Source of the DNA: Escherichia coli | Lineage (GTDB): Bacteria > Pseudomonadota > Gammaproteobacteria > Enterobacterales > Enterobacteriaceae | NCBI RefSeq assembly: GCF_003790525.1 | Contig: NZ_CP033635.1 | Strand: one strand, 5' to 3' | Length of the DNA: 64,000 nucleotides | Part shown: one piece after another, positions 44,956-45,378 of the stretch | How the letters are laid out: each line of letters starts with the position of its first letter | Position numbering within the stretch: position 1 is the first letter of the stretch | Program-made: the position numbers and the translations under genes | Notes under the pieces: model-generated | Databases searched by the model: none | What the model was told of the DNA's origin: nothing | The model's input: the letters and a program-made list of their open reading frames with translations, nothing else

Positions 44956-45378
44956 TCATTCGATAGTCTCAAAATATTCCACCTGCAGAGAATCACGGTG
45001 CTCAATGATGCAATAACGCTGGAAATTATTTGCATAATCACTTTTATCATGAAAAAACCATATACAATCGTTTTGTAGACTCGGTCCCATTCCTTTCAAA
45101 AAATCTATTAGCTTTGCTTTCTGAAGAAAAATATTATCTATATTTCGCCATGTAACAATCACTCTTGTTTGCATATCATCAACATTATAGTAATAGCTAT
45201 ACTCGGCTACGTTTGATATATTTGGCAAATTTCGCAAACTCTCTGGCGTATAAAGGAAAAATGGGGAAAGTTCATGCTGTGTATAGTGATGTTCCTTTGA
45301 CATCAATGAGATATAAGCATAGAAAAATATAAAGAATAAAACTAAAAATGATAATAAAATATAAATATATTTTGACAT
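44956..45378 (-). CDS. hypothetical single-pass membrane protein (gene B of the inserted pair)
   Basis: 140-aa ORF; N-terminal hydrophobic helix YIYILLSFLVLFFIFFYAYISL then a ~110-aa soluble domain; ATG sits 6 nt after the gene A stop (GTAGAG spacer); AT-rich. Confidence 0.7.
   Translation of the reverse strand: MSKYIYILLSFLVLFFIFFYAYISLMSKEHHYTQHELSPFFLYTPESLRNLPNISNVAEYSYYYNVDDMQTRVIVTWRNIDNIFLQKAKLIDFLKGMGPSLQNDCIWFFHDKSDYANNFQRYCIIEHRDSLQVEYFETIE

Follow-up and report, generated by a model that had tools for sequence, protein, structure and literature searches.

What is the function of a small membrane-anchored protein in Escherichia coli whose gene lies only six nucleotides behind a larger one, when the products of both genes are annotated in RefSeq as hypothetical proteins? 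The question is raised by two genes, here called gene A and gene B, on a stretch of 64,000 nucleotides of E. coli DNA (NCBI RefSeq assembly GCF_003790525.1, contig NZ_CP033635.1; this whole stretch is referred to as the window, and positions are given within it unless stated otherwise). An earlier note, made from the sequence alone, had proposed the gene B protein (B) as a candidate immunity or sensor partner of the gene A protein (A), with a membrane effector of an abortive-infection system as a further possibility. The results described here suggest that the two genes probably make up a type VI secretion system (T6SS) effector-immunity cassette, in which B is the periplasmic immunity protein of the T6SS effector A. 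The immunity reading of B is based on the conserved synteny of the pair and its linkage to hcp, on a predicted topology that places the B domain in the periplasm, on the faster divergence of B compared to A, on tandem copies of gene B, and on its retention in strains where A is broken.

Organisation of the cassette

The features of the cassette, in the order in which they are transcribed, are as follows.

45385-46233, minus strand: gene A, 282 amino acids from an ATG start; CapCone-1 Lipocone domain, predicted Hcp-linked T6SS toxin
46135-46155, minus strand: G28-H34 (GWIDLGH) of gene A, with the Gly six residues before the helix-2 catalytic His and the xD motif before that His
45877-45879, minus strand: E120 of gene A, the helix-3 Glu, at least 95% conserved
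45817-45837, minus strand: S134-D140 (SGFSAED) of gene A, the SxxSxxD motif leading into the helix-4 catalytic Asp
45379-45384, minus strand: spacer of 6 nucleotides between gene A and gene B, indicating tight coupling
44956-45378, minus strand: gene B, 140 amino acids, ATG start, stop codon included (RefSeq WP_000049680.1, 'hypothetical protein')
45304-45372, minus strand: transmembrane anchor of gene B (codons 3-25), a helix in the AlphaFold model, predicted N-in/C-out

The open reading frame (ORF) of gene A can be read from a GTG at 46236, giving 283 amino acids, and the RefSeq start is the ATG one codon downstream (282 amino acids); its homologues start with MSKR. The TGA of gene A (45385-45387) and the ATG of gene B (45376-45378) are separated by exactly 6 nucleotides (GTAGAG), which include a weak GAG/TGAG Shine-Dalgarno-like element. 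The spacing given in the earlier note was thus right, and such tight linkage is repeated in relatives. The note had also placed gene B correctly, but it missed both the minus strand and the T6SS-linked Lipocone identity of A, and it is this identity, as a T6SS-linked Lipocone toxin, that gives the immunity reading of B its content.

Gene A encodes a predicted CapCone-1 Lipocone enzyme

Members of the Lipocone superfamily share a site made up of a conserved His in helix 2, a Glu in helix 3 and an Asp in helix 4 (bioRxiv 10.1101/2025.01.14.632903; PMC12419801), and are predicted to remove or exchange lipid head groups that are attached through phosphate (PMC12419801). The residues H34, E120 and D140 of A occupy these active-site positions; their conservation in 71 homologues is 95% or higher, and they fall on helices 32-49, 101-123 and 140-152 of an AlphaFold model (predicted local distance difference test score, pLDDT, 88.9), in which a beta-hairpin 'clasp' (strands 21-24 and 28-31) leads into H34. 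The motifs described for CapCone proteins are all recognisable: G28, the xD motif at I30-D31, F136-S137, the series S134xxS137xxD140, and G147 near the end of helix 4, with the position of the usual CapCone Asn at +4 taken by Asp144. Across the same 71 homologues G28, W29, D31, G33, H34, E120, Q123, S134, G135, S137, E139 and D140 are all conserved at 95% or above, as is the CapCone signature including F136-S137 and G147. A is predicted to be soluble, having no signal peptide, no transmembrane helix and no PAAR domain.

On sequence grounds, A is already catalogued computationally as a CapCone-1 protein and has been in the literature as such since 2025: the published list of CapCone-1 sequences includes CAR16209.1 from E. 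coli IAI39, which corresponds to residues 4-153 of A, with 2 differences over 150 positions. Homologues of A, numbering 268, were found across the Enterobacterales. The sequence searches with A itself gave a weak match to Pfam DUF4056 alone; among its homologues 17 of 37 matched this family at E <= 0.1 and 3 of 37 at E <= 0.001, and the database names of some read 'DUF4056 domain-containing'.

TelC is the only characterised toxin of the Lipocone superfamily; it cleaves lipid II and acts only outside the cytoplasm. Structural similarity of A to a solved Lipocone such as TelC was sought and not found, so the lipid II mechanism of A is one that we infer.

A C-terminal extension of ~50 amino acids (residues ~230-283, window 45385-45550) was seen in the clade of E. 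coli, Citrobacter and Rahnella proteins to which A belongs. Most members of the family are ~234 amino acids long and do not have it, and the A model is of low confidence near residues 263-268.

Gene B is the usual partner of gene A, and hcp recurs beside the pair

The gene A profile found 203 relatives, 80 loci were fetched with it from species-representative genomes, and the neighbouring ORFs were clustered without prior labels. The A family was detected in 79 of the 80 loci and a single B-like family lay directly downstream of it in 75, its ORFs having a median length of 143 amino acids and a hydrophobic helix at the N-terminus. In most relatives the start of the B-like gene falls between a 35-nucleotide overlap with the A stop codon and a 29-nucleotide gap after it, an overlap of 4 or 8 nucleotides being commonest, and the same pairing is found on contigs of Citrobacter, Salmonella, Rahnella, Yersinia, Serratia and Xenorhabdus.

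The commonest specific neighbour of the pair was hcp/tssD (a family of 159 amino acids), adjacent or within ~4 kb in 16 of the 80 loci; generic ABC-ATPase paralogues ranked above it and generic LysR regulators on a par with it. Its identity was confirmed in four examples by matches to TIGR03344 at E <= 1e-52. In 8 loci (from Buttiauxella, Rahnella, Vibrio, Pseudenterobacter, Pectobacterium and Brenneria) hcp lies directly upstream on the same strand, in the order hcp-A-B, and in 7 Xenorhabdus/Photorhabdus loci it is convergent, immediately after gene B. No defence, phage or prophage genes were recurrent beside the pair among the 80 loci, and no other candidate for an immunity gene was recurrent there or present in the islet that holds the cassette.

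This neighbourhood was obtained independently and agrees with the published context network of CapCone-1, in which a partner labelled 'PsbP/Mog1' is downstream in 89 cases and upstream in 1, and HCP is upstream in 8 and downstream in 8 (PMC12419801). In the published network this partner alternates, downstream of CapCone-1, with Imm-BamE, which is a recognised immunity family (PMC12419801). In addition, a two-gene unit within Salmonella pathogenicity island 6 (SPI-6) has a DUF4056-like ORF that was put forward as a candidate T6SS effector (PMC11669294). Among E. coli strains, O2:H6 PG20180057 has intact A, intact B and a complete T6SS cluster with hcp at metV.

Gene B encodes a predicted membrane-anchored, periplasm-facing protein

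After its first three residues (M-S-K), B has an uncharged hydrophobic stretch of 24 residues, YIYILLSFLVLFFIFFYAYISLMS. The AlphaFold model (pLDDT 91.6) shows residues 3-25 as one helix, followed by a compact alpha/beta domain with the order beta-alpha-alpha-beta-beta-alpha-beta-beta-beta. The composition of the 114-residue remainder (Tyr 7.9%, Asn 7.9%, Phe 7.0%) largely mirrors the AT-rich DNA that encodes it. The description in the earlier note, of a 140-residue product with one strongly hydrophobic N-terminal helix and a domain of ~110 residues rich in Tyr, Phe and Asn, is therefore borne out by the ORF, the modelled helix and the composition.

Whether the helix is a cleaved signal peptide or an anchor, a check that the note had asked for, was judged by the length of the uncharged segment and by charge bias, and both favour an anchor with the N-terminus inside. 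With a median length of 20 amino acids in the B family, and 18 or more in 62 of 71 members, the segment is too long for a typical cleaved signal peptide and fits a membrane anchor better. The 71 clean members carry a net charge of +2.08 ahead of the helix and of -0.77 over the 15 residues that follow; for 67 of these 71 the positive-inside bias points to N-in, C-out, and an N-terminal membrane anchor was found in every usable member. A cleaved signal peptide on B is unlikely, and the domain would be periplasmic in either case; B is thus predicted to be a small membrane-anchored protein facing the periplasm.

At the sequence level the B family is unnamed, and no sequence model covers it. B gave no match in PADLOC, NCBIfam, PHROGs, Pfam (even at E <= 10) or the sequences of the PDB; a word-indexed homology search returned near-identical copies only, and HMMER, run exhaustively over 1.84 billion representative proteins, returned only 13 clusters. 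A profile search of the B family added only partners of known A homologues, none of them carrying a Pfam label, and 0 of 36 B-family proteins matched any Pfam model. A clear unrelated homologue of B, which the earlier note had named as a finding that would count against it, was thus absent from the library, PDB and protein searches. That B is not a chance ORF follows from the B-like genes after A in 75 of the 80 loci and from the substitution rates given below.

By structure, a Foldseek search of the AlphaFold database with the B model returned dozens of uncharacterised Enterobacterales proteins of 135-150 amino acids, many from genera that carry A homologues. Two of the matches were named DUF943 (E ~1e-5, template-modelling score ~0.66, the transmembrane helix being inside the alignment), and the scores of the B model against DUF943-named proteins were about equal to those against distant members of its own family. 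The predicted fold of B may resemble those of DcrB/Mog1/PsbP and of DUF943. The layout of Imm-BamE, a two-helix hairpin followed by three beta-strands, was absent from the B model.

Divergence, distribution and decay of the cassette

B diverges faster than A. In 99.9% of 2,485 pairs of loci the identity between the B proteins was below that between the A proteins (means 28.6% and 51.5% respectively), and the ratio of non-synonymous to synonymous substitution rates (dN/dS) was 0.14-0.73 (~0.2) for B compared to 0.06-0.28 (~0.1) for A. The B family is a fast-evolving, real protein family under purifying selection.

Among 5,426 complete E. coli genomes, 486 (~9%) carry the cassette, always with both genes and at an identity of at least 98%. 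Several genomes have two or three cassettes, with up to three in one Serratia plymuthica or Pluralibacter genome. Gene A is frameshifted by independent 1-bp deletions in the B2 strains ATCC 25922 (near codon 74) and NU14 (near codon 198), and despite the broken A both strains keep gene B as a full ORF of 140 amino acids; a length difference of 1-2 bp across the A-B pair was seen in ~6 of 25 evenly sampled carriers. Two loci have a tandem arrangement A-B-B', one in Pectobacterium carotovorum (10694-11587 of the locus extract) and one in Photorhabdus khanii (10666-11664), and these tandem B-like genes look like duplications of the immunity gene.

Genome setting

Gene A and gene B lie in a small islet of low guanine plus cytosine (GC) content, to which the following features belong.

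44868-46746, no strand: low-GC islet of ~1.9 kb between yabI and araC, holding gene A, gene B and the insertion sequence (IS) remnant below
46361-46500, minus strand: frameshifted remnant of an IS630-family transposase between gene A and araC, from the RefSeq annotation of the identical sequence in E. coli SMS-3-5

The GC content is 30.7% for gene B, 33.8% for gene A and 52.3% for the window; within the islet it falls to a minimum of 27-30% over the two genes and climbs towards the flanks. The 1,400 bases around gene B are 100% identical to E. coli SMS-3-5 (phylogroup F). The islet showed no excess of promoter-like sites (11 against 8.9 expected), and no terminator-like site was found 3' of gene B. 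Just downstream of the araC stop codon, at 46721-46737, there is a G7/C7 palindrome, AGGGGGGGCCCCCCTT, which scores as a terminator-like hairpin on both strands.

The cassette lies between araC and yabI (window 44037-47643) in Escherichia, Citrobacter and Salmonella; in the latter two genera the IS630 remnant is missing and just ~166 nucleotides lie at its position. Leclercia, Trabulsiella and Enterobacter sp. ENT03 have it at the opposite end of the arabinose locus, between araD and polB (at ~9100-11300 in two locus extracts and 5500-7700 in the third). Elsewhere in the window an ORF of 189 amino acids (39776-40345, minus strand), between sgrR and the thiB thiamine pyrophosphate (TPP) riboswitch and labelled 'T3SS effector EspY2' (type III secretion system) in RefSeq SMS-3-5, is another small accessory insertion in a core-gene region. 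In SMS-3-5 a second, Flag-2-like flagellar cluster (flhA, flhB, fliR, fliP, fliF, fliI and others) is found near aspV, at 255000-275000 of that genome; in other E. coli strains aspV is the site of a T6SS island.

A proposed effector-immunity function and its alternatives

As proposed here, A would be a soluble CapCone-1 Lipocone enzyme delivered as Hcp-associated T6SS cargo. By analogy with TelC, it would act on the periplasmic side of the target cell's inner membrane and cut a phosphate-linked head group from a membrane lipid carrier, most likely lipid II or some other intermediate of the undecaprenyl-(pyro)phosphate type. B would be translated from the same mRNA as A and inserted into the inner membrane by its N-terminal helix, with its alpha/beta domain of ~115 amino acids in the periplasm, where it would neutralise A injected by sister cells, most likely by binding it. 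Gene B lies immediately downstream of gene A, as is expected of an immunity gene, and, on the predictions of topology and target, B would be in the compartment where the toxin acts. The anatomy, the conserved pairing, the linkage to hcp, the topology signals, the evolutionary rates and the family membership of A are shown here, and from them we infer the toxicity of A, its substrate, its T6SS-dependent delivery and its physical interaction with B. Neither the role of B in immunity nor the topology of its family seems to have been reported before.

Several points weigh against this function. Linkage to hcp was seen in just 20% of loci and never in E. coli, there is no hcp within the window, and no T6SS was found in SMS-3-5 at aspV or metV, which are the two usual E. 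coli sites and were those examined. The absence of a T6SS from these sites means that in SMS-3-5 the cassette may act only as protection against attackers, or may use an apparatus encoded elsewhere. A itself matched Pfam DUF4056 only at E = 0.6. Membership of B in the DUF943 family was also considered and rejected, as Pfam DUF943 (PF06092) was matched by none of a set of 8 B-family proteins and by 0 of the 36, those from Citrobacter included. The searchable literature holds no experiments on either the A or the B family, and the authors of the Lipocone study read the downstream partner as a marker of T6SS secretion and not as an immunity protein (PMC12419801).

The main alternative, implied by that published label, would be that B serves the T6SS as an accessory or adaptor of the PsbP/Mog1 type (DUF1795, Eag-like) which helps to load or stabilise A for secretion and confers no immunity. 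The putative fold class of B would agree with PsbP/Mog1. Eag chaperones (EagR/EagT6) are soluble, cytoplasmic proteins that are encoded upstream of their effectors and bind the transmembrane helices of these. Every usable member of the B family is anchored instead, with the 67 of 71 noted above fitting a periplasm-facing orientation; A has no transmembrane helix or PAAR domain for a chaperone to bind, and in the published network 89 of 90 partners lie downstream of the toxin. None of the 36 B-family proteins matched a Pfam model, DUF1795/DcrB presumably being among the models searched. The fast divergence of B and its persistence intact where A is broken also argue against a loading role, as does the fact that B as a chaperone would leave the cassette without an immunity gene, so an accessory function is distinctly unlikely. 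It is also quite improbable that A has a housekeeping-type role in the envelope, as an enzyme remodelling the head group of a lipid or polyprenyl phosphate, with B as its anchored regulatory or substrate-presenting partner. The absence of a signal peptide or membrane segment from A and the predicted periplasmic location of the B domain would put the two in different compartments of the producing cell; the cassette occurs patchily, in 9% of E. coli genomes, and in more than one copy in some genomes; an IS remnant adjoins it in an islet of low GC content; among specific neighbours only hcp recurs; and the fast divergence of the partner together with the repeated decay of A is typical of conflict cassettes.

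The other role raised by the earlier note, with B as the membrane effector or sensor of an abortive-infection or other anti-phage system and A as its partner, is supported only by the general arrangement, in which an AT-rich accessory islet holds a larger gene followed by one for a small anchored protein. PADLOC gave no match for A or B at E <= 1 and PHROGs nothing significant, it is hcp and not defence or prophage genes that recurs among the neighbours of the 80 loci, the conserved catalytic site of A is that of enzymes acting on lipid head groups, a family that has been connected with secreted toxins, and one transmembrane helix with a folded periplasmic domain is not a pore-forming architecture. 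We regard this explanation as very improbable indeed; of the roles that the note had suggested, immunity is the one favoured by synteny, hcp linkage, topology, divergence, duplication and retention, while the sensor or abortive-infection effector lost ground with the lack of a PADLOC match and of defence neighbours. Beyond the effector-immunity function itself, a bolder version of it can be put forward as an unlikely though coherent possibility: that the B family would be a new class of immunity protein with a DcrB/Mog1-like anchored periplasmic domain, sharing the origin of its fold with the Eag chaperones, which would shield or sequester the lipid carrier and not (or not only) bind the toxin, and that in strains without a T6SS, as SMS-3-5 may be, the cassette would persist purely as a defensive 'orphan'. 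Such a defensive orphan module would agree with the finding that A has decayed repeatedly while B was kept.

Comparison with known systems

A is a member of CapCone-1 as defined by Burroughs, Nicastro & Aravind (eLife 2025, PMC12419801), with the motifs described there all present and conserved. That assignment was computational, and the anchor, topology, evolutionary rate and immunity role of the partner are not described in that paper. The clade to which A belongs (ClaspCone-CapCone-TelC) also includes TelC of Streptococcus intermedius, which with TipC forms a type VII secretion system (T7SS) pair of lipid II phosphatase toxin and immunity protein, and the immunity protein of that pair works on the outer side of the membrane, as proposed here for B. 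The sister family Pfam DUF4056 (PF13265, 'CapCone-DUF4056') has the same motifs as the family of A, but true DUF4056 genes in the published network adjoin genes for outer-membrane beta-barrels and not hcp or a B-like gene.

The pair DUF3289-DUF943 (T6EC1-T6IC1; Geller et al., Mol Syst Biol 2024, PMC11148199), which is also from the Enterobacterales, has the same gene order as A and B. Experiments have validated DUF943 as an immunity protein against DUF3289, a T6SS effector candidate of the colicin M type that acts in the periplasm, with lipid II as its presumed target (PMC11148199), and the architecture of DUF943 (residues 1-6 inside, a transmembrane helix at 7-26 and a periplasmic domain of ~130 amino acids) is like that of B. 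The DUF3289 toxin is colicin M-like whereas A is a Lipocone, and a relationship between B and DUF943, if there is any, would be at the level of the fold only. The Eag/DUF1795 chaperones (SciW, EagT6/PA0094), which belong to the DcrB/Mog1/PsbP fold class, differ from B in being soluble and encoded upstream, whereas B is anchored and encoded downstream.

Implications

A cassette annotated merely as two hypothetical proteins is carried by ~9% of complete E. coli genomes, and its carriers include the widely used strains ATCC 25922 and NU14 as well as clinical B2/F lineages. As the pair is small and clonable and the catalytic residues of A are clear, the hypothesis put forward here is directly testable. 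If it is true, the immunity protein of a CapCone-1 toxin would be assigned to a family that has no sequence model, and the published reading of the partner as a secretion marker would be corrected, which matters for the automated calling of effectors and immunity proteins. The retention of B where A has decayed would be an added case of immunity genes kept for defence, and A would represent a family of T6SS toxins that attack the cell-wall lipid carrier in Gram-negative bacteria, the counterpart of the Gram-positive T7SS toxin TelC.

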